Of a DNA stretch of 64,000 nt, positions 35,921 to 50,739 are shown piece by piece. Origin of the DNA: an uncultured Clostridiaceae bacterium (GTDB lineage Bacteria; Bacillota; Clostridia; Saccharofermentanales; UBA5734); assembly GCA_942493365.1 (NCBI GenBank), contig OW818697.1:418634-482633 (forward strand). The letters are read 5' to 3'. Every line of letters starts with the position of its first letter. Position 1 is the first letter of the stretch. The notes under the pieces were generated by a model, which was given only the letters and a program-made list of their open reading frames with translations, was not told where the DNA came from and did not search any database. Position numbers and translations under genes: made by a program.

Positions 35921-37135
35921 TTATTCGCGTAAAAAAGGGATGCTGCTTGATTCGTATGATCGGATACGCGCGGCCTTTTCGTATTGCGAGATGCGGTTTT
36001 TGCCGCCGGATTTTGCCGCATACATCGCAGCATCGGCATTATCGAACAAGTTCTCCAGCGACCAGCCGGGCAGCCAGTTGGCAATACCGATGCTGATGGT
36101 AACGACGTCGTCCGTAAAGCTGTATTTTTGACTGGCAAATTCGGCACGGAGTTTCTCCAGGAAATCATAGGCTTGATCAACTTCATTCTCGGTAAAGATA
36201 ATCGCGAATTCTTCACCGCCAAAACGAGCGGTAAAGCGATTGGCGCCAAAATCGCGCTTCATAAGCTCTGCCAACTTGTAGATGACCTTGTCGCCTTTAA
36301 GATGGCCATAGGTATCATTGATTTTCTTAAAATCATCGATGTCAATAATGGCCAGGGCAATTTGCATATTGGTTTTCTCTGATAGCTTAACCATTTGCGA
36401 CAAAGTATTCATAAAAATGGTGTGACCGTGCAAGCCTGTCTTTTGATCCTTGTACATCAGCTCCTTCATTTCGAGCTGGTTAAGATAACCTTGCTGAATG
36501 ATATCGTTTTTTTCGCGCTGAAAATCAATCAAAACATTGCAAACCATGGCCGTTGCGATCAAGAGCGCAAAAGCAACGATGGCTTCGGCGACATAAAAGT
36601 TTTCGTTGATTGGCCGAAAATTTGAAAGTGTGCGTTGAATAATTTCGATAAATAATGCAGCAAAACAAAGGATGCCAATGCGGCGGGTGATCTTTTTGCT
36701 GCTGAAAATGATGGTCACAAAAAGCGGTATACAAAATACACATAACGCTGCTGAAAAAACATAATGGGTCGATGACACAACAACGCCCATCAAAATCTGC
36801 TGCAGGGAAGGGACATAATTGATCATACGTGAAGTTGAGGGCAACTTCTTTAGCAAAATGAAACCAGTGATAATGATAAGAGAATTGGCAGCGGTTGGGA
36901 TTAATAAATAGCGAATAAAATAACCTTCAGGTGTACTGACAATCAAATCAGAGCTTTTCAGAAAAAAATACATGAAAAACTCAACGAGAAAAATAAAAAT
37001 GGCAACGTAAATATTGGTTTTGAAAAGTGTTCTGCGCCATTTCTCATGGATGGTGTCAAAATCTTTCAAAATGACCTCCCTCTTCTGCCGGATGCGATGG
37101 AAATATTCATCAATGCCATGATTAACGTTCATCAC
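35921..37135 (-). CDS. membrane-anchored diguanylate cyclase (GGDEF)
   Basis: About 6 N-terminal TM helices precede 'DIDDFKKINDTYGH' and 'RFGGEEFAIIF'. Confidence 0.85.
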   Translation of the reverse strand: MMNVNHGIDEYFHRIRQKREVILKDFDTIHEKWRRTLFKTNIYVAIFIFLVEFFMYFFLKSSDLIVSTPEGYFIRYLLIPTAANSLIIITGFILLKKLPSTSRMINYVPSLQQILMGVVVSSTHYVFSAALCVFCIPLFVTIIFSSKKITRRIGILCFAALFIEIIQRTLSNFRPINENFYVAEAIVAFALLIATAMVCNVLIDFQREKNDIIQQGYLNQLEMKELMYKDQKTGLHGHTIFMNTLSQMVKLSEKTNMQIALAIIDIDDFKKINDTYGHLKGDKVIYKLAELMKRDFGANRFTARFGGEEFAIIFTENEVDQAYDFLEKLRAEFASQKYSFTDDVVTISIGIANWLPGWSLENLFDNADAAMYAAKSGGKNRISQYEKAARIRSYESSSIPFLRE

Positions 37136-37206: not shown

Positions 37207-37752
37207 TTATAGACCAAAACTTGATGGAAGCCGCACGATCATCCGATCGCCGATTTTAGCGGACAGCAGGTTGCGCAGATCGTCAGCTGAACCCAAAATG
37301 AACTTCTGACGACCGATGATGCAGATGTGGCCAGGCCCCAGATTGATATAAAAAGCATCAACAGTTTCGTAGGCCTTTTCGATCTTCTCGTATTCGTAGA
37401 CAGCCGGGATGTCAGCGTCCTTATCGGTCCAGACGGTGATGCCGTCGTCGTCAAAGCGATAATGATTGGGGGTCATCAGATGGTCCTCGATCGAAAGGTA
37501 ATACCGGCGGGGCAGAAAGAGGATGATGCCGGCCAGCAGCAGGCACATGCCAAACAGCAGAACGAAACCGATCAGGTTGAAAACATCCGCAGGGTTTTGG
37601 ATGTACATGACCAAAAAGACAATAGCCAGAATCGGCGTCAGCGCTAGCAGCAAGGGCGCTTGCCAGCGGGAACGCTTGCCCTGCAGAAAACTGAACAGGA
37701 AAAACTTGCGGTATTCGGCATAGTTGATGGTCGTGGTTGCTTCAATACGCAT
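37207..37752 (-). CDS. YcxB-like membrane protein
   Basis: The 181-aa product has two central TM helices flanked by soluble segments, as in YcxB/DUF4429-type proteins. This call is by architecture only. Confidence 0.5.
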   Translation of the reverse strand: MRIEATTTINYAEYRKFFLFSFLQGKRSRWQAPLLLALTPILAIVFLVMYIQNPADVFNLIGFVLLFGMCLLLAGIILFLPRRYYLSIEDHLMTPNHYRFDDDGITVWTDKDADIPAVYEYEKIEKAYETVDAFYINLGPGHICIIGRQKFILGSADDLRNLLSAKIGDRMIVRLPSSFGL

Positions 37753-37864: not shown

Positions 37865-39316
<1,452 letters not shown>

Positions 39317-39380
39317 AATAAATTATATTATGTTATAATGAAGGGCATGATCACCGCTACAATCGTTGAAAGGCAGGGGT

Positions 39381-40439
39381 ATGATGCTTTCATTGATGAC
39401 GAGAATCAGGTTCTGGCGAACCATGGCCTGTGTCCTGGCTATCAGCCTGCTTGCGGCCGGCTGCGCTGCTCAGACAACCGCTTCCGAACCGAGCGCTACC
39501 ACCACCCGACCTGAGAGCCAACCGAACGCGACGACCACGACCGTGCCCACGATTTTCGAAACCGAGCCGGTCGAAACCAAACCGCCGATCGTCGAACCGT
39601 CCGAATACATCACAATCACCACGCCGGCCAAAAACGACGACGGCCTGGTCTTTCAGCCGCTAGATCCAAGCAATGGCTACAAAATTGACTTAAATAAGGA
39701 CGGGGTGCTAGAGAAAATTTCTTTTGTTGCTCCCACTGAGGAGTTTTCGGACTACTATTTTTTGGTTTTGAATGATCAGTATGCTGAGTTTGGCGATGAA
39801 GATGACTGGGGGTCGAGTTGGCCGGTTATCGTTGATCTGGATGTCAAGGATGAAGACTATGATTTGATCTATTATCACGGCCAGGCAGAATTCTGGAGCA
39901 CCAACTTTTATTATTATCACGCAGGGAAGCTCGTTTTTCGGGGAAGAATATTTGACGATTTCATGATTTATGAAGATTACATATATCTAAAACCCATTGC
40001 ACTCTTTACCGGTAAAATTGATGGGCAGGGTAATATAATTTCTGTTGGCACCAATAATTTATGTGAAAATGCTAATTTTGATGTGGACTGGAAGGTTGCA
40101 CCCAATGGGCTGATCGAAGTTATTCGTTCGAAAGGATATCAACGGCTTTATTCTGTGTGGGGTATCGATCAAAAAGTATACGGAGTCCCGGTTACGCTCA
40201 AAATCGATCTACCTCTATATTCAGATCCCACAGATGCCATGACAAAATTGCTTGCCAAAGCTGGCGAAGACGCACAAATCATTCAGGCTGATGACATTTG
40301 GTTTCAAATACGCACACAACACGACCAACTTGGCTGGTTCCGTTTGGAAAACGATGTTCAGTATTCGGTGCTTGTCGGTTATCAAGCGCAATACACCTCG
40401 GACGTTTTCGAGGGACTATTTCTGAACGAGGGTGGTTGA
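39381..40439 (+). CDS. lipoprotein of unknown function, family member A1 (C-terminal SH3b-like)
   Basis: It has the lipobox 'LLAAGC', a Thr/Pro-rich linker, 'DLNKDGVLEKISF', 'DLPLY', 'LGWFRL' and 'VFEGLF'. The ATG at 39381 follows AGGCAGGGG. Confidence 0.6.
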   Translation: MMLSLMTRIRFWRTMACVLAISLLAAGCAAQTTASEPSATTTRPESQPNATTTTVPTIFETEPVETKPPIVEPSEYITITTPAKNDDGLVFQPLDPSNGYKIDLNKDGVLEKISFVAPTEEFSDYYFLVLNDQYAEFGDEDDWGSSWPVIVDLDVKDEDYDLIYYHGQAEFWSTNFYYYHAGKLVFRGRIFDDFMIYEDYIYLKPIALFTGKIDGQGNIISVGTNNLCENANFDVDWKVAPNGLIEVIRSKGYQRLYSVWGIDQKVYGVPVTLKIDLPLYSDPTDAMTKLLAKAGEDAQIIQADDIWFQIRTQHDQLGWFRLENDVQYSVLVGYQAQYTSDVFEGLFLNEGG

Positions 40440-40451
40440 AAGGAGATCATC

Positions 40452-41489
40452 ATGCTATATTATCGTAAAATGTCGGCTACTATTGCCGTAACGGTTTATC
40501 TGGCGCTGATATTTTGCTCATGCAGCAGCAATGCTAGAATAACGGAGACAACGCCTGAAACCCTCATCACGACGACTCAGACAACCGCGCCGTCACCAAG
40601 CCCCTTGCCGACCCCCGTGCCGACGGACGAATTCGTCATTGAATCGCCAGCGACTGATTCTAGCGGGCGACCTTATCAGCTGCTTTCCGTTACCAACCCC
40701 TATCAGGTTGACCTGAACAACGACGGCAAAAAAGAAAGCATTTCGCTCGATTTCAGGCAGAATCCGGCAGTTGACTGGGCGTACCAATGCTATGTTCTTT
40801 TTGTTAATGGTGAAGTCGCAGCTGTTTTGTCTGACGAACATCCAACCGTTGTCCTGATCGACCTCGACACCGCCGATGGCCATCTGGATTTGCTCATCGA
40901 ATATCAGAGACACGGCGATCAATATTACAGCGAAATCTATTTTTATGACGGCCTCAAACTGATTAATCGCGGCACCCTGATTGACAGCTTTTTGACCTGG
41001 CCGGGTCGTAACGACGAACAGCCTGGCAGTCAGCCATCCGGTCTGATTGCCGCCAAATTTCCCGAACAGGGCATCTTGATTGAATATAGCTATGGTGAGT
41101 ATGGAAACCGTTTAAACGAATACTGGTTTTATGAACAACCCTGGATCATCGCGCCCAACGGCCTATTTGAAAGCGTGCCGCTGGACGACTATCTGCCGAT
41201 GCTCTGCCTTGACGAAGCAACCGGCGCACGATTGCATTATCTGCCCGCCACCCTGATAATCGACCTGCCGCTTTACGCCGATCCATCGGCCGCGCAAACC
41301 TCCATCACCGCCGCCGCCGGCGAATCCGTACGTCTGATTCGTACCGACAACCTGCAGTGGTTCGAGTTGCAGCGCCCGAACGGCCAGCGCGGCTGGTTCC
41401 GGACTGACTATTTTGGTGGCTATAATATCTTGAGCAACGGCGACGTCATTGACAGGGATGACGTTTTCGAGGGGCCGTATTTCGAATGA
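40452..41489 (+). CDS. probable lipoprotein of unknown function, family member B1
   Basis: It has a signal-like N-terminus ending 'FCSC', a Thr/Pro linker, 'DLNNDGKKESISL', 'APNGLFE', 'DLPLYADP', 'RGWFRTDY' and 'VFEG'. Confidence 0.6.
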   Translation: MLYYRKMSATIAVTVYLALIFCSCSSNARITETTPETLITTTQTTAPSPSPLPTPVPTDEFVIESPATDSSGRPYQLLSVTNPYQVDLNNDGKKESISLDFRQNPAVDWAYQCYVLFVNGEVAAVLSDEHPTVVLIDLDTADGHLDLLIEYQRHGDQYYSEIYFYDGLKLINRGTLIDSFLTWPGRNDEQPGSQPSGLIAAKFPEQGILIEYSYGEYGNRLNEYWFYEQPWIIAPNGLFESVPLDDYLPMLCLDEATGARLHYLPATLIIDLPLYADPSAAQTSITAAAGESVRLIRTDNLQWFELQRPNGQRGWFRTDYFGGYNILSNGDVIDRDDVFEGPYFE

Positions 41490-41566
41490 TTATAAGTGCG
41501 TGAAAATATTCATGGCATGATACATAGAAAACTTAATTGCCGCTGTTATAAACGAAAGGCAGGGAT

Positions 41567-42655
41567 ATGATGCTTGCATTTACGACGAACAATAGAATCT
41601 TGCGAATCATGGTCTGTGTCCTGGCTATCAGCCTGCTTGCGGCCGGCTGCGCTGCTCAGACAACCGCTTCCGTATCAACGGCCATAACAACAGCGGAGTC
41701 CAAGCCGACCGCAACGACTATCAGGCATGAGACTGAACCGACCGCAACGACCACGGCCGCTCCCACAACATTCGAGACCGAGCCGGTCGCAACCAAACCG
41801 CCGATCGTCGAGCCGGCCGAATACATCACAATCACCACGCCGGCCAAAAACGCCGACGGCTTGGTTTTTCAGCCGCTGGACATCAGCAAGGGCTATAAGG
41901 TTGATCTCAACAAAGACGGCGTGCCGGAAAAAATATCTTTCGTCACCTCAACTGAGGAGTTTTCGGACTGTTACTACATCATTATCAATGATCAGTACAC
42001 CGCAATAGGCAGTGAAGAGAACTACGATGCAAGTTGGCCGGTTATCGCTGATCTGGATATCAAGGACGACGTTTATGACTTGATCTATTTTCAACCCTGG
42101 GAGGAATACTGGAGCACCCTTGTCTATTATTTCGACGGAGAGAAACTCAATTATCGCGGCGACATTTTCGGTGACATCATGCTTTACGATGTTGAAAACG
42201 ATTTAAAACCGGTAGCTTTACGCGATGGCTTCCTGGATGGACAGGGTAACATCATCACATTCGATTTCAGCACTCTGAGTTTTAACATCAATTATGACAA
42301 AAACATGCGGATTGCCCCCAATGGCTTGATCGAAGTGATTTCTGTCCAAGGGTTTCGCCGGATCTATAATTATGACTGGGTGGCAAATCAAAAAAGCTAC
42401 AATTTTGAAATGACTCTCAAAATGGATCTGCCCTTGTACACATCACCTTCAGCCGCCAAGACGTCGCTGACGGCCCAAGCCGGTGACTCCATTCAGTTCA
42501 TACAATGCGACGACACCTGGTATCAGCTACGCACGCAAACGGGTCAGTTGGGCTGGTTCCGCATGGAGATCGGCGGCAACTATGAAGTGATCGTCGGTCA
42601 TCAAACCTATAGCCCAACGGAAGTGTTCGAGGGCATCTCGACCTATGATTCTTGA
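41567..42655 (+). CDS. lipoprotein of unknown function, family member A2
   Basis: The 5' region, including the ribosome-binding site and signal peptide, is nearly identical at the nucleotide level to A1. It has the same motif set ('DLNKDGVPEKISF', 'LGWFRM', 'VFEG'). Confidence 0.6.
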   Translation: MMLAFTTNNRILRIMVCVLAISLLAAGCAAQTTASVSTAITTAESKPTATTIRHETEPTATTTAAPTTFETEPVATKPPIVEPAEYITITTPAKNADGLVFQPLDISKGYKVDLNKDGVPEKISFVTSTEEFSDCYYIIINDQYTAIGSEENYDASWPVIADLDIKDDVYDLIYFQPWEEYWSTLVYYFDGEKLNYRGDIFGDIMLYDVENDLKPVALRDGFLDGQGNIITFDFSTLSFNINYDKNMRIAPNGLIEVISVQGFRRIYNYDWVANQKSYNFEMTLKMDLPLYTSPSAAKTSLTAQAGDSIQFIQCDDTWYQLRTQTGQLGWFRMEIGGNYEVIVGHQTYSPTEVFEGISTYDS

Positions 42656-42674
42656 TGAAGGGGGGGTGTGAATC

Positions 42675-43697
42675 ATGATCAAGCGGAAAATCAGAGGCAG
42701 CACTCGATTGCTGGCCGGCATTTTCCTGACGTTGGCGCTAGTCGGTTGTGCCGCACCGGGTTCTATGACGCCTGAAACCGTCAACACAACAGATGAGACA
42801 GCAGTGACTTCGTCAACGACAACCACCGAACCATCAAGTGATATTGTTATTGAGACTCTGGCAACAGATCCGGACGGACGTCCTTTCCAGGTGCTTTCCA
42901 TAGCCAATTCTTATCTGGTCGACCTCAATGGCGACGGAACCCAGGAACATCTTTCGATCGACCTCCGAGAGGAACCGGAAAGTCATGATATCGATAAGCA
43001 CTTCATCCTGCTGCTGAACGGAGAAATCGCAGGCTTGCTGGATACTGAACCACCGACCATTGTCCTGACCGATCTTGATCAGGCCGATGGTTATCTGGAC
43101 TTGCTGCTGGAATGGCAGGGCTACCTTGGTTATACTAGCGGATTCTATTTTTATGACGGCCAAAATATGATTAATCGCGGGATCATTGAAGACAGCTTCC
43201 TTTACTGGCCGGGTCGCAACGACGAACAGTCCGGCAATCAGCCAACCGGACTGGATGAAACCAAATTGCCCGAAAGCGGCATCCTGATTGAAAACAACTT
43301 CGGTCAGTACGGGTATTTTTCGGACGACAAATGGTTTTATGAACAACCCTGGTTCATCGCGCCCAACGGCCTGTTCGAGAAGATGCCGCTGGAAGGCTAT
43401 CTGCCGATGGCCTGCTTTGACGACGCAACCGGCGCTCGTTTGCCCTATCTGCCTGTTAACCTGAAAATTGACCTGCCGCTCTACGTCGAGCCGACAGCCG
43501 CGCAAACCATCATTACCGCTGTCGCCGGTGAAACCGTCCACCTGACTCGGACTGACAACATTCAGTGGGTTGAGTTGCAGCGCCCGAACGGCCAGCGTGG
43601 CTGGTTTAGAACGGATTACCGCGGCGGCTATACCATCCTGATCGACGGTGATGAGATTGCCAAGGAAGATGTCTTCATGGGCATCAATTACAATTGA
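42675..43697 (+). CDS. lipoprotein of unknown function, family member B2
   Basis: It has the lipobox 'LALVGC', 'DLNGDGTQEHLSI', 'APNGLFE', 'DLPLYVEP' and 'RGWFRTDY'. Long stretches are near-identical to B1. Confidence 0.6.
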   Translation: MIKRKIRGSTRLLAGIFLTLALVGCAAPGSMTPETVNTTDETAVTSSTTTTEPSSDIVIETLATDPDGRPFQVLSIANSYLVDLNGDGTQEHLSIDLREEPESHDIDKHFILLLNGEIAGLLDTEPPTIVLTDLDQADGYLDLLLEWQGYLGYTSGFYFYDGQNMINRGIIEDSFLYWPGRNDEQSGNQPTGLDETKLPESGILIENNFGQYGYFSDDKWFYEQPWFIAPNGLFEKMPLEGYLPMACFDDATGARLPYLPVNLKIDLPLYVEPTAAQTIITAVAGETVHLTRTDNIQWVELQRPNGQRGWFRTDYRGGYTILIDGDEIAKEDVFMGINYN

Positions 43698-43719
43698 CTA
43701 AAACTGTTCCACATTTCTC

Positions 43720-43753
43720 AAAAAAAGAGAGCCCGCAAACCTGCGAGCTCTCT
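43720..43753 (-). terminator. rho-independent terminator (probably bidirectional) between convergent genes
   Basis: The stem pairs AGAGAGC (43726-43732) with GCTCTCT (43747-43753), with an inner CGCA/TGCG pairing. On the minus strand a 7-nt T run (43720-43726) follows. Confidence 0.65.
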
Positions 43754-43775
43754 TCACATCAATTCAGGATGTTGA

Positions 43776-45551
43776 TCAGTAACTGGGAATGGCAGCACTT
43801 AAACCGAGACGATCGGCAAGTTCGGCGAATTTCTGCATAACATCTTCGGTCATCAGCTCGCTGATCCCCGCGTCGTCAGTAATGCTGACGGTGTCAACGT
43901 CGCTCAGATCGGGGATGGTGGCGTCATTGGCCGCGATTTCGGAGTAACGAATATTCAGCGAGCCAATACCAGCAATGCTGAGATCCATGACGAAAACGTT
44001 GCCGTCAGCTTTGGCTTCGTAATTGATCTCGGTGGGCATGCCGGACGAAAGAGAGGATTCATCAACAATGGTTAGGGTGAATTTGCCCAGCGTGAAGTCT
44101 TTCGAGCCGATCCTTTGCTCAAAAACATTTTCAAAATCGATCGTGGCCATGGTGACACCATCAACACCAAAGGTCGCACCACCGGTCTTTTTGCCGCCAG
44201 TTACGGTGTATTCCGACAGGTATTCAATGGCGCCTGTTCCGGTGTCGATCAGGTAGGAGACGGCTTCCTTGTTGCCGCTGACCGGGTGGGCATACTGGAA
44301 GCTCATCATGGTGGCACCGGCGCTGGTGATGGTCAGATCACGGCCGACAACCTCTTGATTGATATTAATATAAACTTTCTGTTCAATGGTAAAGTCGGCG
44401 CTGGTGTCATTTTCGGTGTCGTTGAGCTGGTCGATACTGACCTGTAAATCGGCTTCGTAGTCTTCCCTGGCAAGCTCGCCTGCACCAGAGGAAACAGCCG
44501 TCTGGTTGTAAAGCTTGAAAATCTCGTCGTCTTTTTGCAGCATTTCCATAATTTCAATGAGCATCAGGCGGGCGCTTTCCTTTTCGATGGTCATGGTGTA
44601 ACAATCATACTTGGCAGAAATTTCGCCAGCGGTGAGCGTTTGTCCCGCAGTCATCTCACATTTGTCGACATGTTTGAGCATGATGTCGATCATTTTGGAG
44701 AAGGTATTCTTGAGCGCTGCTTCGTTAAAGCTGAAATCGAAGCTACCAGCACCGCTGAACATAGCCGGATCAAGGACTGAGGTATCGACGCCGGATTGGC
44801 TCATCAGGGCGAGGAGTTCTTCGGAAGTGGCCGAGATGTATTTGGGCAAAATATCCGGCAGACCGACCAGCATCTGGTCAGAATCGATCAAGCCTTGAGC
44901 AGACAGCAAAACTTCGTCGCCGGTCGTCAAGTCGAGCTGATCAAACATCTTGGTCACATCGCCGGTGCGATTATACAACAATCGGTTTTTGAGCGTTAGG
45001 TTCTCGTAAATGGCAGCCATTTCGGCATCCAAGCCCAACGCGGTTTCGTCGAGATCGACTTTGAATTCAACGTTATAGCCGCCTTTGTCTGCAGTATTGG
45101 TATACTGGCCCACATCTCCGATCAGGTCAGAGGTGTTCTGTTTGAGCTCTTTTCCTTCGACGTATGCGTAATAACCCTTGGTTCCCAGCAGTGCCTTATT
45201 GACAGTAGCGCCGACGCCGGGGACAAAAGCATAAACACCGACGCAGACCAGTGCAATGACCAAAATAACAACGATGGCGACCAGCGCGCCTTTTTTCTTG
45301 CGGCGCGGTGCCGGCGCAGGTGGATTGGGCATGGCGTAGACAGGAGGCGTATACTGCGTTGCGGCCGGAGCGGGCGTGGCGCCGGTTTTGGTTCCGCATA
45401 CACCGCAAAACAGAGCGCCGGGTTTCAGCGGGTTTTGACAGTTCGCGCAGGTCGAAGCGACGTTATTTGCGACGTCAACGGTTCGAGAGCCGCAGTTCGC
45501 ACAGAAAACGGCATTTTCCGGCATGTCGGCACCGCAATTTATACATTTCAT
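43776..45551 (-). CDS. double zinc-ribbon, single-pass membrane protein with large extracytoplasmic domain
   Basis: The N-terminus has 'CINCGADMPENAVFCANCG' and 'CANCQNPLKPGALFCGVCG'. A Pro-rich linker and a TM helix ('ALVAIVVILVIALVCVGVYAFV') follow, then about 480 aa with no recognisable motif. Confidence 0.6.
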   Translation of the reverse strand: MKCINCGADMPENAVFCANCGSRTVDVANNVASTCANCQNPLKPGALFCGVCGTKTGATPAPAATQYTPPVYAMPNPPAPAPRRKKKGALVAIVVILVIALVCVGVYAFVPGVGATVNKALLGTKGYYAYVEGKELKQNTSDLIGDVGQYTNTADKGGYNVEFKVDLDETALGLDAEMAAIYENLTLKNRLLYNRTGDVTKMFDQLDLTTGDEVLLSAQGLIDSDQMLVGLPDILPKYISATSEELLALMSQSGVDTSVLDPAMFSGAGSFDFSFNEAALKNTFSKMIDIMLKHVDKCEMTAGQTLTAGEISAKYDCYTMTIEKESARLMLIEIMEMLQKDDEIFKLYNQTAVSSGAGELAREDYEADLQVSIDQLNDTENDTSADFTIEQKVYININQEVVGRDLTITSAGATMMSFQYAHPVSGNKEAVSYLIDTGTGAIEYLSEYTVTGGKKTGGATFGVDGVTMATIDFENVFEQRIGSKDFTLGKFTLTIVDESSLSSGMPTEINYEAKADGNVFVMDLSIAGIGSLNIRYSEIAANDATIPDLSDVDTVSITDDAGISELMTEDVMQKFAELADRLGLSAAIPSY

Positions 45552-45658
45552 GATAGATCCTCCTTCTGATTCCTGGCATAAATATACTAAGAAAAGATAA
45601 CTAGATTATAAACCTGTTAATCAGTCAAGGCAATGTACCGCACAGAAAACTGACAAGA

Positions 45659-46627
45659 TCAGTCGGCGAAAAACAGACCGTCGAAAACCTCGCCACCGTA
45701 AAACGCCTGGGCACCAACCAGAACGGAAAGGCCGCCGTCTGTAAGCTGAAACCAGCCAAGTTCGCCTTTCTGTGTTCGCATCTGAATCCATTCGACATCA
45801 TCGGTCCAGATCAGACTGCCCGTCTCGCCAACTTCAGCAACCAGTGTCGGATCGCTGTCACCCGGCACGGCATAAAGCGGTAAATCCATCAGCAGCGATA
45901 CCGCTGTTTCTGGCAGGCGGTCGCCAGTCAAAAGATCAAAGCTGGCCATCGCGGCATACTGCTGAGGAATCTGTTGAAGCTGACCACCAACTCCGACATG
46001 CCAGGGTTGATCGTAGTACCAGGTGTGCAAAACGTTGCCGCGGGCCAGGGCAATCAGACGGCCAAAGCCATCGAGCTGAATCGTGCCCTGTCCATAAGGG
46101 TCGGTCACAATAGTTGGACTGTAGGGATCACAGATTGTACCCTGAACCGAACCACGGCTGACAAGGCTGGCACCATTGAAATAATAAAAGGTCACAAGAT
46201 AATCGTCGCTTGGCCCAAGCTCCTGAACAGCGAGGTCCAGAAAAGAGTCGTCAGCATTGAGATCAGTCAGAAAAAACCAGTCGGTCAGGAAATTATCGCC
46301 TTCCCAGGCCATGACGATGCCGTTGAAGGTCAAGTTGGCATGGAATTCATCGATGACGGTGTAAGAAAAATTTTCGCTTTCGCCGTCAGCATTGAGATCA
46401 AAACGATGGTTTATGCCGGCCGGCAGCGGCTGGTAGAAAATGTCAGGTAATGGCGGCTCGGTCGGTGGTGTTGTTTCAATCGTGGTTTCAATGACTGTTT
46501 CGGTCGTGGTCACCGCGGTGGTGCTGGTGTTCGCCGAGAATCTGCAGCTACCAAGCAAAACCGCCGCTATAAGGACTGCTGGTAAAACAAATAAATTGAA
46601 TGAACCCGATTTGACAACAAGCCGCAT
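45659..46627 (-). CDS. lipoprotein of unknown function, family member C (fifth paralogue)
   Basis: It has the lipobox 'LLGSC', a Thr-rich linker, 'DLNADGESENFSY', 'DLPLYAVP', 'LGWFQL' and 'VFDGLF'. The ATG at 46627 follows GGGAGG; the ORF opens at 46702. Confidence 0.6.
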   Translation of the reverse strand: MRLVVKSGSFNLFVLPAVLIAAVLLGSCRFSANTSTTAVTTTETVIETTIETTPPTEPPLPDIFYQPLPAGINHRFDLNADGESENFSYTVIDEFHANLTFNGIVMAWEGDNFLTDWFFLTDLNADDSFLDLAVQELGPSDDYLVTFYYFNGASLVSRGSVQGTICDPYSPTIVTDPYGQGTIQLDGFGRLIALARGNVLHTWYYDQPWHVGVGGQLQQIPQQYAAMASFDLLTGDRLPETAVSLLMDLPLYAVPGDSDPTLVAEVGETGSLIWTDDVEWIQMRTQKGELGWFQLTDGGLSVLVGAQAFYGGEVFDGLFFAD

Positions 46628-46693
46628 GATGGTCGCCTCCCTTTTTGCATGATTATTATAACATATGCTTGACAAATACAAACGAAGGATGTA

Positions 46694-46731
46694 TTGTCTC
46701 ATTGTACTAAGCGCTTAGTACAATGAGACAA
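46694..46731. promoter_or_regulatory. perfect 38-bp palindrome, candidate GntR/YtrA operator
   Basis: TTGTCTCATTGTACTAAGC|GCTTAGTACAATGAGACAA has 19-bp arms with no mismatch. It lies between the divergent lipoprotein C gene and the gntR gene and contains the GT-N-AC type core. Confidence 0.7.
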
Positions 46732-46748
46732 CAGGAGGTGAGCCTTGC

Positions 46749-47111
46749 ATGCTGATTGAGTTTTCTGGCGATACTCCGATCTACCTGCAGCTGATCCAGA
46801 TCGTCCGACAGGCCATTATCACCGGCGAGATGCCACCGGGCAGCAAAATACCCAGCGTTCGCGATCTGGCTGTTCAGTATGGCGTGAACCCCAACACGGT
46901 GCAGCGATCACTTGCCGAACTGGAACGCGACGGCCTCGTCTACGCGGAGCGAACCGCAGGCCGTTTCATCACGACCGATGCTATCCTGATTGAAAAAACC
47001 CGCAGCGAACTGGCTGACCTGCAAATCGACGCGTTCATCGCGCAGATGAAAGTGCTCGGCTACAGCCAGGAGCAACTGCAAAACATTTTGTCGAAGAAAT
47101 GGAGTGAATAA
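46749..47111 (+). CDS. GntR family transcriptional regulator (YtrA-like short subfamily)
   Basis: The 120-aa product has 'G.K.PSVRDLA...GVNPNTVQR.L.ELE..GL'. A GGAGGTG ribosome-binding site lies upstream. Confidence 0.85.
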   Translation: MLIEFSGDTPIYLQLIQIVRQAIITGEMPPGSKIPSVRDLAVQYGVNPNTVQRSLAELERDGLVYAERTAGRFITTDAILIEKTRSELADLQIDAFIAQMKVLGYSQEQLQNILSKKWSE

Positions 47112-47112
47112 G

Positions 47113-47820
47113 ATGTCCATCATAGAAATCAGTCATCTTAACAAGTCTTATGGCCCAACCAAAGTGCTGGCCGACCTCTCGCTGACCGCCGACTCGGGCC
47201 GCATCATCGGCCTCCTGGGGCCCAATGGCTGCGGCAAAAGCACCTTGCTCAAAATCATGGCCGGCCTGATCAGCGATTATGAGGGCGACATTCGGATCGA
47301 CGGTCAGCACCCTGGATTACACACCAAGAGCGTGGTTTCCTATCTGCCCGAGAAGACCTACCTCAGCGCCTGGCAGCGGCCAATCGACACGTTCGATTAT
47401 TTTGCTGACTTTTACGCCGATTTCGATCGAGCCAAGGCCGACGACATGCTCCAGCGGTTCCGGCTCAAACCCAAACAGCGAATCGGCACCATGTCCAAAG
47501 GCATGCAGGAAAAATTGCAGCTGGTCCTGGTCATGGCCCGACAGGCCAAAGTCTATTTGTTGGACGAGCCGATGGGCGGTGTTGATCCGGCGGCGCGCAG
47601 CGCCATACTGGACCTGGTGCTGCAAAACTATCAGGAAGATGCCGTGATGCTGCTGGCCACCCACCTGATTCAAGATGTCGAGCGAATTTTTGACCATGCC
47701 ATCATTCTGGGTTTCGGCGAAAAGATTATTGACGAAGATGTCGACACCATTCGCCAACAATACGGCAAAAGTGTCGATGAGGTCTTCCGGGAGGTGTTCA
47801 AATGTTCATTAAACTTTTAA
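47113..47820 (+). CDS. ABC transporter ATP-binding protein
   Basis: It has Walker A 'GPNGCGKST', the signature 'MSKGMQEKL' and Walker B 'YLLDEP'. The ATG at 47113 follows GGAG. Confidence 0.88.
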   Translation: MSIIEISHLNKSYGPTKVLADLSLTADSGRIIGLLGPNGCGKSTLLKIMAGLISDYEGDIRIDGQHPGLHTKSVVSYLPEKTYLSAWQRPIDTFDYFADFYADFDRAKADDMLQRFRLKPKQRIGTMSKGMQEKLQLVLVMARQAKVYLLDEPMGGVDPAARSAILDLVLQNYQEDAVMLLATHLIQDVERIFDHAIILGFGEKIIDEDVDTIRQQYGKSVDEVFREVFKCSLNF

Positions 47821-48623
47821 AGCATGAATTCCGCGCGACCCGCCGGACGGTACCGTTTATTTATCTTGCGACGATGTTCATGATTCTGGTCAATCTTTTG
47901 ACCCGGCAACTCGACATTGGCTGGGTGTCCGGCTTCATGATGATTATGATGATCGGCTTTGGCGCCGTGCAGATCCTGATGACCTACATTGTGGTGTTTG
48001 CTCGCTATTACAAAAATCTCTACAATTCCGAAGGATACCTGACACACACACTGCCGGTGCCGCCGCGCAAGCTGCTGGCCAGCAAGGCTGTGGTCGCCTT
48101 CTTCTGGCTACTGATCAGTTACATCCTGATGGCAGGCGTCATCGTAACCACCTTGATCCTGATCATCAGCGAGCAGGCTCATAATCTCAGCCTGCCCCAG
48201 GTCCTTGACCAACTGATCGCCGGATCCGGCATACAGAAAACATACTTTTACGCCGCCGCCGCCGGCTTTGCCGCTTATCTTTTGCTGGCCATCGCCAACT
48301 TGCTGGCCCAGGTCTATTTCGCCATCACGGTGGGCAATTTAGCGGTGTTTCACAAGATGGGCATCGCCGCGCCGATTCTGGCCTACCTGAGCGTCTATTT
48401 CGCGCAGCAAACCCTGACCCTCGTGGCCATCGTGTTCATCCCGCTGGGCATCAAACCCGTCGGCGATACGCTGCAAATTGTGCCAGAGGGAATGCTGACG
48501 ACGATCAGCAATCCAGACTACGTGATCATCGGCTTGGGCCCGGTTTTTATCATGGTGCTGATGACCGTCGCGCTGCTCTATGCAACCTCGCGTTTCATGG
48601 CGCGCGGCACCAGCCTCAAATAG
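47802..48623 (+). CDS. ABC transporter permease-like membrane protein
   Basis: The 273-aa product has about 6 TM helices and overlaps the ATPase gene by 19 nt. The gene context is ytrAB-like. Confidence 0.65.
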   Translation: MFIKLLKHEFRATRRTVPFIYLATMFMILVNLLTRQLDIGWVSGFMMIMMIGFGAVQILMTYIVVFARYYKNLYNSEGYLTHTLPVPPRKLLASKAVVAFFWLLISYILMAGVIVTTLILIISEQAHNLSLPQVLDQLIAGSGIQKTYFYAAAAGFAAYLLLAIANLLAQVYFAITVGNLAVFHKMGIAAPILAYLSVYFAQQTLTLVAIVFIPLGIKPVGDTLQIVPEGMLTTISNPDYVIIGLGPVFIMVLMTVALLYATSRFMARGTSLK

Positions 48624-48711: not shown

Positions 48712-49197
48712 ATGAAGCTCTACTTCAAGCAACAGCCCTTTGCATGGGGCGAACGTCTTGAGATCATTAACGAAGCACAAGCACTGGTTCTGTCGGCTGA
48801 AGGCGAGGTCTTCGACGGCGGGGCCTTGCTGCATCTTTATGACGCCAAGGGCGAGAAGGTCGCACAGGTCAGACAGCAACTGCTCAGTTGGCGGCCGCGC
48901 TATCACATCGAAGTCAAAGGCAAGGAAGTCGGCATTCTGCTCCAGCGTTACGCCATGGTGGGCACTCGCTATGACATCGACCTTTTGAGCTGGACGACGC
49001 GCGGCAACTGGGGATCCGAGCTGTTTGAAGTAGTCGACCACAGCCGCATTGTGATGACCGTCACGCCGGCCGCGATTGCTGGCTTTGACGGCTATCTGAT
49101 CGACATCGCAGTCAAAAACGATCTCTTGCCGGCGGTCTGCATCGGGTTGACCATAAACTTTTCGCTCGCGGCAGAACTTCATCACGGGGTGGGATAA
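48712..49197 (+). CDS. LURP-one-related / tubby C-terminal-like (DUF567) protein
   Basis: The 161-aa product has the pattern 'F.....D..G..V..V.....S....Y.I...G.....I'. This is a recognition-level call only. Confidence 0.5.
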   Translation: MKLYFKQQPFAWGERLEIINEAQALVLSAEGEVFDGGALLHLYDAKGEKVAQVRQQLLSWRPRYHIEVKGKEVGILLQRYAMVGTRYDIDLLSWTTRGNWGSELFEVVDHSRIVMTVTPAAIAGFDGYLIDIAVKNDLLPAVCIGLTINFSLAAELHHGVG

Positions 49198-49853
49198 TGG
49201 ATCGCGAAACGGCAATAACCTATGGAAAAATCGACGGCTGGCTGCAAGTTGGCTACGAAGCGTGGCACAAAAAACGCCTTGCGCACACCCGCGAATTTTG
49301 GCGGCAGGCCTGGGAGCTGATCGTCGACCTGATGGCGACGGGCCACTATGCCACGCTGGACGAACTCAACAAAGCCTTCGGCGGCAAACACGGCATCACC
49401 AGTTGGGCCGCAGACTATGGCGACGTCCTTTATCAATACGACAGCGACCACCCCGACGAAACGCCGGCCAGCCTTGCCTTCAACCGTCAGGTGCTCGCCT
49501 GGAGCGCCAACCCGCGTGATCTCAACAACCAAAACCGCCGCCGTATGATTGCCATCTGCACCTTCAAGCACGAAGGCCCGGCGGCCGGTGACGCGGTGTT
49601 TGCCGCCTACCTCGCCGAGAATCCCAGTTGGGGCTGGGGTTGGGCCAGTTGGGCCGATCAATACGGCTTTGACAGCCAAACAAGTTGGTACGACCTGGCA
49701 CGTGCCGAGGCCATTCTGCGTCAGTCCCTGACCGTTGAAGCGCTCGACAGCCGAGCCACCGTCCGCGAACGGCTGCGCGATGTCCTGCTCAAGCAAGGCC
49801 GCCCGAGCGCGGCGGCGGCAATCGAACTAACCGACACGCGGCGCCAGATTTGA
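49197..49853 (+). CDS. hypothetical protein (Trp-rich, helical)
   Basis: The 218-aa ORF has a TAATG stop/start overlap with the upstream gene. No motif was recognised. Confidence 0.45.
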   Translation: MDRETAITYGKIDGWLQVGYEAWHKKRLAHTREFWRQAWELIVDLMATGHYATLDELNKAFGGKHGITSWAADYGDVLYQYDSDHPDETPASLAFNRQVLAWSANPRDLNNQNRRRMIAICTFKHEGPAAGDAVFAAYLAENPSWGWGWASWADQYGFDSQTSWYDLARAEAILRQSLTVEALDSRATVRERLRDVLLKQGRPSAAAAIELTDTRRQI

Positions 49854-49920: not shown

Positions 49921-50739
49921 ATGTTTTGTCCAAGTTGTGGTACCAAGAATGATGATGGCGCCCGTTTTTGCAGCTCCTGCGGCCGCCCCTTCAACGGCGC
50001 ACCCGTCGCCGCACCCGTCGCCCAGGCCGCGCCCGTCGCCGCGCCGATCCAACCCCTGAAATACGAAATATTCGGTGCCAACCTGCCAGCCGTCTCAATT
50101 CGGCTCAACGCCGGCGAGTGCATTTACACCCAGTCGGGCGGCATGACCTGGATGGACAACGGCATCATGATGGAAACCAACATGAAGGGCGGCCTGATGA
50201 AGGGCCTGGGCCGGATGTTTTCCGGCGACTCCCTCTTCATGGCCACCTATACAGCCAGCCAGCCCAATCAGGAAATCGTCATCGCCAGCACCTTCCCGGG
50301 CAGCATCGCCGCGGTCGAACTGACCGGCGGCTCGGTCATCGCCCAGAAGTCGGCCTTCCTCTGCGCCCAACCCAGCGTCAACCTCAGCGCTTATGTGACC
50401 AAGGGCCTGGGCGCCGGCTTGTTCGGCGGCGAAGGCTTCATCCTGCAACGCCTCACCGGCGTCGGCACGGTGATGCTTGAAATTGACGGTAGCCTGGTGG
50501 AGCGCATTTTGGCTCCCGGCGAGGTCATCAAGGTTGACACCGGCAATGTGGCCGCTTTCGAAGACAGCGTGAATTATCAGGCCGAAATGGTCAAGGGCTT
50601 CAAGAACATCCTGTTCGGCGGTGAAGGCCTCTTCCTGACGACTCTGACCGGTCCAGGCAAAGTCTGGCTGCAAACCATGAACCTGCCGAGCTTTGCCAAA
50701 TCACTGATCCCATTTTTACCCAAACCATCGGGCACCTGA
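49921..50739 (+). CDS. zinc-ribbon fused AIM24/TIGR00266 family protein
   Basis: N-terminal 'CPSCGTKNDDGARFCSSCG' is followed by 'SGGMTWMD', 'GDSLFM.TY', 'GGEGFILQRLTG.G' and 'GGEGLFLTTLTGPGKVWLQ', the AIM24 (DUF124) blocks. Confidence 0.75.
   Translation: MFCPSCGTKNDDGARFCSSCGRPFNGAPVAAPVAQAAPVAAPIQPLKYEIFGANLPAVSIRLNAGECIYTQSGGMTWMDNGIMMETNMKGGLMKGLGRMFSGDSLFMATYTASQPNQEIVIASTFPGSIAAVELTGGSVIAQKSAFLCAQPSVNLSAYVTKGLGAGLFGGEGFILQRLTGVGTVMLEIDGSLVERILAPGEVIKVDTGNVAAFEDSVNYQAEMVKGFKNILFGGEGLFLTTLTGPGKVWLQTMNLPSFAKSLIPFLPKPSGT

Follow-up and report, generated by a model that had tools for sequence, protein, structure and literature searches.

A widespread, unannotated extracytoplasmic module of Bacillota carried by five lipoprotein-type genes of an uncultured Clostridiaceae bacterium

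A 64,000-nucleotide stretch of the genome of an uncultured Clostridiaceae bacterium (assembly GCA_942493365.1, contig OW818697.1, positions 418,634 to 482,633; hereafter the window, numbered from its first letter) contains five paralogous genes for predicted lipoproteins. Four form a tandem array on the forward strand, A1 (39381-40439, 352 residues), B1 (40452-41489, 345 residues), A2 (41567-42655, 362 residues) and B2 (42675-43697, 340 residues), and the fifth, C (45659-46627, 322 residues), lies beyond them on the reverse strand. A hidden Markov model (HMM) of the family, built from 78 members, retrieves exactly these five proteins in the window (E = 4e-69 for A1); all five are annotated proteins of one 2.37-Mb NCBI contig. 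They share an acidic C-terminal head, which is a widespread but unannotated module of Bacillota, and the five genes are its lipoprotein form in a lineage-specific expansion. The genes had been proposed from the bare sequence in an original prediction, and the table of open reading frames shows all five at the positions that it gave.

The five-way protein alignment has 42 invariant columns, which include DLN.DG..E..S, DL....D...DL, Y...RG, DLPLY..P, GWF and VF.G. Nearly all of the motifs listed in the original prediction appear there, with two corrections: APNGL is found only in the A and B types, C having GVGGQ at that position, and B2 ends in VFMG instead of the acidic variant that had been described. 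Similarity across types extends over the whole head and is highly significant (BLASTP E-values of 2e-37 for A1-B1, 1e-32 for A1-C and 4e-31 for B2-C), which settles an early reservation that the A-B resemblance might not survive a proper alignment. A1 and A2 share 59% amino acid identity, A2 is identical to P0001, and each of the five proteins is a singleton cluster at 90% identity in a collection of 15 billion proteins. The B1 start lies 12 nt past the A1 stop (ribosome-binding site AAGGAG) and the B2 start 19 nt past the A2 stop, with a good ribosome-binding site in each gap; A1 and B1 are probably co-transcribed. The ribosome-binding site of A1, GAAAGGCAGGGG, lies 7 nt 5' of the start at 39381, and its near-identical conservation in A2 supports that start; the public A1 product, P0002 (338 residues), begins 14 codons later at Met15 (39423) and so loses the charged n-region.

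All five proteins match a PROSITE PS51257-style lipobox, taken as the regular expression [LIVMFWSTAG](2)-[LIVMFYSTAGCQ]-[AGS]-C within the first ~40 residues. The lipobox cysteine is residue 24-28 (Cys28 in A1), and two to five Lys or Arg residues precede the h-region in every case. A stalk of 34-70 residues follows the cysteine (60 in A1), 67-74% of it Thr, Pro, Ser, Glu or Ala, and the low predicted local distance difference test scores (pLDDT, 57-68) that AlphaFold gives to the stalk indicate that it is disordered. Judged from these features of the sequence, the five proteins would be exported and lipid-anchored.

The head is ~260 residues long and very acidic in all five proteins (isoelectric point 4.05-4.27). 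In the AlphaFold model of C (pLDDT 90.1 overall, >95 for residues 60-320), it consists of an all-beta domain at residues ~60-240 followed by a small beta unit at ~241-322. The C-terminal unit, ~75 residues, is an SH3 (SH3b) domain. B2 exceeds the gathering cut-off of the Pfam model SH3_2 (24.3 against 21.8 bits); SH3_3 matches A2, B1 and B2 at 17.6-20.4 bits, under its 27-bit cut-off, and neither A1 nor C matches an SH3 model. Among the 78 family members SH3_3 matches 41, with a best E-value of 3e-7. A profile search of the PDB found the SH3 domains of Abl and spectrin at profile positions 229-273 (E = 4e-4 to 0.07). Residues ~241-310 of C are modelled as successive short strands with pLDDT 97-98, as in an SH3-like small beta-barrel, and Foldseek aligned the C model locally with the SH3 domain of PSD-95 (5ypr; probability 0.92 over 60 columns, root mean square deviation 4.2, but E = 0.38). 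The original prediction's SH3b-like reading of this part stands. SH3b domains commonly bind the cell wall, and those of the SH3_3/SH3_4/SH3_2 clan in lysostaphin and other peptidoglycan hydrolases resemble the unit described here in profile, in extracytoplasmic location and in occurring in Gram-positive bacteria. Unlike the hydrolases, the window proteins have no catalytic domain, and their SH3 unit is always fused behind the ~180-residue beta domain, the two being conserved as one unit.

The N-terminal beta domain was modelled confidently also when taken alone (pLDDT 92.6, predicted template modelling score 0.88), and no annotated or structurally solved counterpart of it was found. No Pfam or NCBIfam model matched it; the PDB profile search returned nothing but SH3 domains and a designed TIM barrel, the latter a spurious repeat match; and Foldseek, run with the whole chain and with the domain alone against the PDB and the viral BFVD set, returned nothing at E <= 0.001. 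The original prediction knew of no characterized family with these motifs, and the Pfam, NCBIfam, PDB sequence and fold searches bear it out for this domain; the assignment to a known domain that could have overturned it extends to the C-terminal SH3 unit only. The best non-significant Foldseek matches are partial overlaps with beta-propellers, namely integrin-alpha, the PHL lectin, 6-phosphogluconolactonase-like proteins, a PL11 lyase and TolB. Since no structural neighbour is significant, the fold supplies no functional analogy.

The most conserved features of the head are two acidic loops in this domain. Loop 1 has the form D-x-[ND]-x-D-G-x-x-[ED], present as DLNxDGxxE in all five proteins, and its positions are kept in nearly all of 132 family sequences (D77 in 129, [ND]79 in 130, D81 in 128, G82 in 119 and [ED]85 in 132). 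Loop 2, D-h-[DN]-x-x-D-x-x-x-[ED], is conserved to a similar degree in the same sequences (D122 in 119, D127 in 128 and E/D131 in 125). DxDxDG is a classical calcium-binding motif, and because loop 1 is of this type it probably binds Ca2+. The initial description of the loop as EF-hand- or dockerin-like is apt for the motif but does not extend to the domain. Both loops lead in the model into beta strands rather than helices, and the first helix of at least four residues in the modelled head is a short one at 311-314. An EF-hand or dockerin identity was rejected: the head is all-beta, neither Dockerin_1 nor an EF-hand model matches any of the five proteins at E <= 1, and one of the 78 members gives a marginal match (E = 0.002). 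Membership of the FG-GAP propellers was also rejected. Integrin-alpha/FG-GAP (VCBS) propellers have a DxDxDG-type loop followed by a hydrophobic beta strand, as loop 1 does, and together with other propellers they are the top non-significant Foldseek matches, at E = 0.03-0.8 and template modelling scores of at most 0.39. However, the head domain, at ~180 residues, is too short for a closed seven-blade propeller; comparison of four segments of it by hhalign revealed no internal repeats, only the overlaps between segments introduced by their definition; and FG-GAP and FG-GAP_3 match only one of the 78 members, at E ~0.009. The resemblance is therefore kept at the level of the loop. DUF4652 was likewise set aside as the identity of this domain, since in P0032, P0033 and P0034 it sits N-terminal to the module and separate from it.

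The family is far larger than the five members with which it was first described. A word-indexed search found 11 proteins only, with all outside relatives of the C type. An exhaustive HMM search of 1.84 billion cluster representatives (50% clustering) gave 957 representatives at E <= 1e-3, of which 327 reached E <= 1e-10, and most of the matches are a single stretch at profile positions ~92-348, i.e. the two-domain head as a unit. Among 157 retrieved representatives, 138 have an N-terminal hydrophobic segment, 74 a lipobox, 135 the loop-1 motif and 112 a terminal G-h-x-x-[AG]-[DE]. These proteins are publicly named 'hypothetical protein' or 'SH3 domain-containing protein [Bacillota bacterium]', or else after a fused domain, and we found no description of the head module in the literature.

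In longer relatives the head is always C-terminal, and what precedes it is informative. A Peptidase_M56 (BlaR1-type) domain is fused to the head in four proteins (P0018, P0023, P0111 and P0115), an N-terminal zf-HC2 anti-sigma domain in one (P0075) and a Sigma70 r2/r4 domain in one. A head that acts as a sensor domain predicts that such fusions should have canonical signalling partners, and these were found: the gene for the M56 fusion P0023 overlaps the end of, and directly follows, a Penicillinase_R (BlaI/MecI-type) repressor gene, and an ECF sigma gene immediately precedes that for the zf-HC2 fusion P0075. By these two arrangements the head occupies the extracellular sensor position in two classes of transmembrane switch. 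The distant M56 relatives resemble the BlaR1/MecR1 sensor-transducers in carrying a C-terminal extracellular domain beside a Penicillinase_R gene, whereas the window proteins are free lipoproteins that lack a transmembrane transducer, with no M56 domain in any of the five by Pfam scan. Beta-lactam sensing is not implied, because true BlaR1 has a penicillin-binding (transpeptidase-like) sensor where the fusions have the head. Free and fused forms coexist in one genome, the Saccharofermentans metagenome-assembled genome (MAG) chromosome OY776634.1 (3.15 Mb), where a C-type lipoprotein lies beside a GntR-ABC block (L003) and P0023 beside its BlaI-type repressor (L007).

The commonest partner of the head is YARHG, which directly precedes it in 16 of 39 long relatives; others include DUF4652, Cu_amine_oxidN1, TPR and SLH, and the FG-GAP_3 repeats and DUF4652 of fusion proteins are N-terminal to, and separate from, the module. 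YARHG has been hypothesized to bind peptidoglycan and was noted beside SH3 domains (PMC3355149). YARHG (Coggill & Bateman 2012, PMC3355149) and the head are alike in being unexplained extracytoplasmic Firmicutes modules tied to signalling proteins and SH3 domains, but YARHG is a small helical domain, unlike the all-beta head, and is absent from the window proteins.

We consider it reasonably probable that the head is an extracytoplasmic ligand-binding or sensor module, and that the five window proteins are Ca2+-stabilized binders of an envelope-derived ligand at the cell surface. The identity of the ligand is much less certain than this overall reading. An envelope-derived one seems most likely given the YARHG and SH3b partners, the former a hypothesized peptidoglycan binder and the latter a cell-wall-targeting domain. 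A less probable account makes the head a lectin-like or carbohydrate-binding-module (CBM)-like sensor of exogenous polysaccharide, so that the lipoproteins would be surface glycan binders of a saccharolytic Clostridium and the fusions glycan-responsive switches. An analogue exists in Clostridium thermocellum, where RsgI anti-sigma factors have CBMs as their outer domains. The relatives are Saccharofermentans and other Clostridia, conserved acidic loops typify Ca2+-dependent sugar binding, the nearest folds include the PHL propeller lectin (6flu, template modelling (TM) score 0.37) and the Ca2+-dependent PL11 lyase propeller, and one relative has CHB_HEX_C_1 and Fn3_assoc domains. Those fold matches are far from significant, however; the module itself gives no CBM, lectin or glycoside-hydrolase Pfam signal, no carbohydrate-utilization genes lie beside the array or beside the C orthologues, and the recurrent partners YARHG, SH3b, SLH and Cu_amine_oxidN1 point to the cell's own envelope.

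To reconstruct the history of the array, we built a bootstrapped neighbour-joining tree on 260 head columns. It groups A1 with A2 and B1 with B2 in 100% of bootstraps each, joins the A type with the outside proteins P0015 and P0016 in 78%, and separates A, B, P0015 and P0016 from the C type in 100%. By these groupings the A and B lineages are old, and the duplication took in the A-B pair as a whole; the alternation of A1/A2 and B1/B2 had already been read in this way, and the sister pairs agree with it. Homology between the two A-B units extends from the ribosome-binding site of A to the stop codon of B. The A/B array was found in no other related locus, the A-like P0015 and P0016 being single copies, and the closest public relatives come from MAGs of Saccharofermentans and other Clostridia. 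C is the ancestral, syntenic copy, with single-copy syntenic orthologues in related Clostridia.

Adjacency of A and B also bears on another account of the head, as a protein-protein unit: A and B would form obligate heterodimers, each completing an incomplete beta-sheet domain, or the SH3 unit would dock on the Pro-rich stalks of paralogues in a surface scaffold. A and B are always adjacent, with the short gaps of 12 and 19 nt; the whole pair was duplicated rather than a single gene; the likeness of the N-terminal domain to a propeller is partial; and a Pro-rich stalk stands right before the head (e.g. PPTEPPLPD in C). We nevertheless judge this unlikely, as C-type and A-like genes are single-copy in other genomes, most superfamily members have one module per protein, and PxxP is missing from three of the five stalks.

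The duplicated units are mosaics of similarity. A1 and A2 share 78-95% nucleotide identity from the ribosome-binding site to ~39670, broken by a 30-nt indel, and 47-68% beyond; the high-identity tract of A1 (39360-39670, +) pairs with ~41546-41886 in A2, covers the ribosome-binding site, signal peptide, stalk and first conserved block, and is likely a gene-conversion tract. The mosaic is real, but the earlier description of these 5' blocks as almost identical was overstated, since the maximum is 93-95% in 60-nt windows. B1 and B2 had been credited with the same pattern, and there is a tract of 75-85% identity (40931-41440, +, pairing with ~43139-43648 in B2) in the 3' half that includes most of the SH3 domain, although the signal is modest. 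Synonymous divergence (dS) agrees: between A1 and A2 it is 0.2-0.5 over codons 1-100 and saturated after, and between B1 and B2 it is 0.36-0.65 over codons ~167-306, with saturation throughout the 5' half. Among conserved degenerate codons, identical codons amount to 81% versus 52% for A (Fisher p = 6e-5) and 72% versus 52% for B (p = 0.008). In 10,000 permutations that preserved codon position, the 58-nt identical run in A was never equalled and the 26-nt run in B was equalled 75 times. The mosaic supports partial gene conversion, or an equivalent history of unequal exchange, after an older duplication, clearly for A and more weakly for B. Gene conversion was one of two causes proposed at the outset, and the dS heterogeneity and run permutations make it a reasonable one.

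The other proposed cause, diversifying selection on the ectodomains, is not supported. The ratio of nonsynonymous to synonymous divergence (dN/dS), computed by segment, is 0.26 overall for A and 0.35 for B, and below 1 in every measurable 40-codon window (0.05-0.8), the one exception being the signal peptide of B, where the alignment is poor. Purifying selection acts on all copies. This bears directly on the idea of a surface-variation locus, in which the ectodomains (serving as receptors or decoys for phages, for example, or as antigens exposed to immunity) would diversify between ends that stay conserved to allow recombination. The tandem paralogy, the mosaic identity, the predicted surface exposure and the singleton status of all five proteins would suit such a locus. 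We regard it as very improbable in view of the dN/dS values; in addition, saturated dS in the diverged parts indicates an old duplication and not a fast-evolving one, and the region showed neither inverted repeats nor silent cassettes, nor any gene for an invertase or recombinase. The tandem array is a case of ordinary duplication followed by partial gene conversion.

C stands apart from the array in its surroundings. Divergent from it is a block of genes for a 120-residue PmtR/YtrA-like GntR regulator, an ABC ATPase and a 273-residue ABC-2-like permease (together 46749-48623, +), a LOR-like protein, a 218-residue protein and a zinc-ribbon AIM24 protein. The same block lies beside the C orthologue in L001/L002, L003 and L004, at 45-85% protein identity. 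C's neighbour resembles the PmtR/YtrA systems in having a GntR regulator of this size, a palindromic operator-like site over its own -10 element, an ABC ATPase and a permease; the regulator and ATPase are closest to PmtR and PmtA, though far under the equivalog cut-offs (57.6 versus 200 bits), and fall in the short YtrA-like class. The likeness concerns the neighbour of C, not the lipoproteins. We know of no Pmt or Ytr system that includes a lipoprotein of this head family.

A perfect 38-bp palindrome, with the halves TTGTCTCATTGTACTAAGC and GCTTAGTACAATGAGACAA, occupies 46694-46731 in the intergenic region shared by C and the GntR gene; it is unique in the window, with 0.01 expected by chance, and its core TGTAyTAAG-N2-CTTArTACA is kept in the corresponding regions of L001, L003 and L004. 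It overlaps the -10 element of a promoter-like site of the GntR operon, TTGACA-17-TATTGT (46669-46697, +), also conserved in L001, L003 and L004. The combination of TTGACA/TGTATTGT promoter and palindrome core is conserved across related Clostridia. The palindrome is probably the autoregulatory operator of the GntR regulator. C has its own candidate extended -10 element, TGTTATAAT (46655-46663, -), and orthologues keep TGnTATAAT in the same place (TGATATAAT and TGCTATAAT). The palindrome lies ~31-68 nt upstream of this element, which is on the strand opposite to the GntR promoter, and with that placement over the GntR -10 co-regulation of C is possible but not indicated. The palindrome had been assigned to the promoter region of C; it does lie in the shared intergenic region, but it overlaps the GntR promoter and is not evidently an operator of C. 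No further half-site (<=3 mismatches) occurs in the window, including near A1, A2 and the B genes, which leaves the A/B array without a link to the GntR operator. Upstream of A1 the same nonamer as before C, TGTTATAAT (39331-39339, +), is a candidate extended -10, and the 77-nt gap between B1 and A2 contains another candidate, TGTTATAAA (41544-41552, +).

These findings argue against a further account that we hold to be improbable, in which C, and with it A and B, would be an extracellular accessory of the GntR-controlled ABC-2 exporter, co-regulated through the palindrome and serving envelope-stress or peptide-export functions like those of PmtR-Pmt or YtrA-Ytr. In its favour, the divergent arrangement is kept in three independent contig sets (L001/L002, L003 and L004), the intergenic region between C and the GntR gene retains the operator core, and PmtR and PmtA are the proteins most similar to the regulator and ATPase. 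But the palindrome sits on the GntR -10 and away from C's conserved extended -10, the PmtR and PmtA scores are far under the curated cut-offs, in L005 and L006 C lies beside AIM24 without GntR-ABC genes, and the A/B array has neither such a neighbour nor a copy of the palindrome.

Several points weigh against reading the five proteins as envelope-ligand binders with the history given above. The ligand, Ca2+ binding, export and expression all derive from sequence and models. Four of the five window proteins fall under the Pfam SH3 gathering thresholds, and the N-terminal domain lacks a significant structural neighbour (best E 0.03-0.1, TM score <= 0.39). The fusions place the module outside the membrane in signalling proteins but do not reveal what is sensed, and an exogenous glycan or protein ligand fits the fusion data equally well. 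The link of C to the GntR-ABC operon is positional only, and in L005 and L006 that operon is not beside C. For the array, the heterogeneous dS could reflect a history of unequal crossover rather than classical gene conversion, of which the signal in B is weak.

On the envelope-binder reading, a type-II signal peptide and the lipobox cysteine would anchor the proteins to the membrane, facing outward, in a Gram-positive anaerobe. The disordered Thr/Pro/Glu-rich stalk of 34-70 residues would hold the binding head at the outer side of the membrane, and the head, stabilized by Ca2+, would bind an extracytoplasmic ligand, most likely a cell-envelope component such as peptidoglycan or a wall polymer. 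C would have been kept as the ancestral copy beside the PmtR/YtrA-like GntR and ABC-2 exporter operon. A and B, separate lineages of greater age, would have come together as an A-B bicistron with closely spaced reading frames, and its tandem duplication would have taken place in this lineage. Over the 5' ~300 nt of A, and less clearly over the 3' ~500 nt of B, partial gene conversion would afterwards have made the copies alike again. We advance tentatively a more specific proposal: the head may define an undescribed family of Bacillota extracytoplasmic sensors, with a fold that has no solved relative, which receives signals for non-beta-lactam BlaR1/BlaI-type and ECF sigma/anti-sigma switches, the lipoproteins (C and the A-B pairs, possibly as heterodimers) serving as receptors, co-receptors or decoys for the same envelope-derived ligand.

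The specificity of the outer domains of most BlaR1-like (M56) proteins and of many Firmicutes anti-sigma factors is largely unknown. One such outer module, ~250 residues long and modelled with confidence, is isolated here; it has no entry in Pfam, NCBIfam or the PDB and occurs in at least 957 sequence clusters. Because the head also occurs in small lipoproteins with a soluble head, which should be easy to express, ligand identification and structure determination are practical, and a ligand or structure obtained with lipoprotein heads would apply to the fused signalling proteins as well. The finding overturns nothing; its use is as a way into the question of what is detected by non-beta-lactam BlaR1-type sensors and by some anti-sigma ones.

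Among the remaining genes of the neighbourhood, the one for the AIM24-family protein with an N-terminal zinc ribbon (49921-50739, +) is the most conserved, at 78-85% amino acid identity in relatives, and it still adjoins the C-type gene in L005 and L006, which have no GntR-ABC genes there. The interval from the ABC permease to AIM24 contains the genes for a 161-residue protein (48712-49197, +), the L001 homologue of which is recorded as LOR/tubby-like (PF04525), and for the 218-residue protein (49197-49853, +). Neither has a Pfam or NCBIfam match in the window, and both are syntenic in L001, L003 and L004. Downstream of C, on its strand, the gene at 43776-45551 (-) encodes a 591-residue double zinc-ribbon protein with one transmembrane segment and a large outer domain (Zn_Ribbon_1 E = 1e-10, DZR E = 9e-9), as the original prediction had stated in placing a double zinc-ribbon membrane protein between B2 and C. 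Its outer domain has no Pfam match. A homologue in L004 (35% identity over residues 1-584 by tblastn) lies ~1.6 kb downstream of the C orthologue, and in L001 a different zinc-ribbon protein with an LRP1-like beta-propeller is found nearby.

The A/B array is flanked by gnd and by the zinc-ribbon gene. Between the convergent B2 and zinc-ribbon genes is a GC-rich hairpin (43727-43752), whose A7 on the forward strand makes a T7 tail on the reverse strand; as read from these letters, it is a likely terminator of the minus-strand gene, possibly a bidirectional one, although a consensus scan did not report it. An Rfam scan of 39000-47200 found no RNA family. Upstream of gnd are genes for a membrane GGDEF diguanylate cyclase (35921-37135, -) and a YcxB-like membrane protein (37207-37752, -), the latter with a homologue ~7 kb from the C orthologue in L004. 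In L010 (323-5233), the A-like single-copy P0015 lies among four adjacent genes for proteins of 349, 310, 107 and 293 residues that have no Pfam match and are not family members; these may form another uncharacterized surface-protein cluster.

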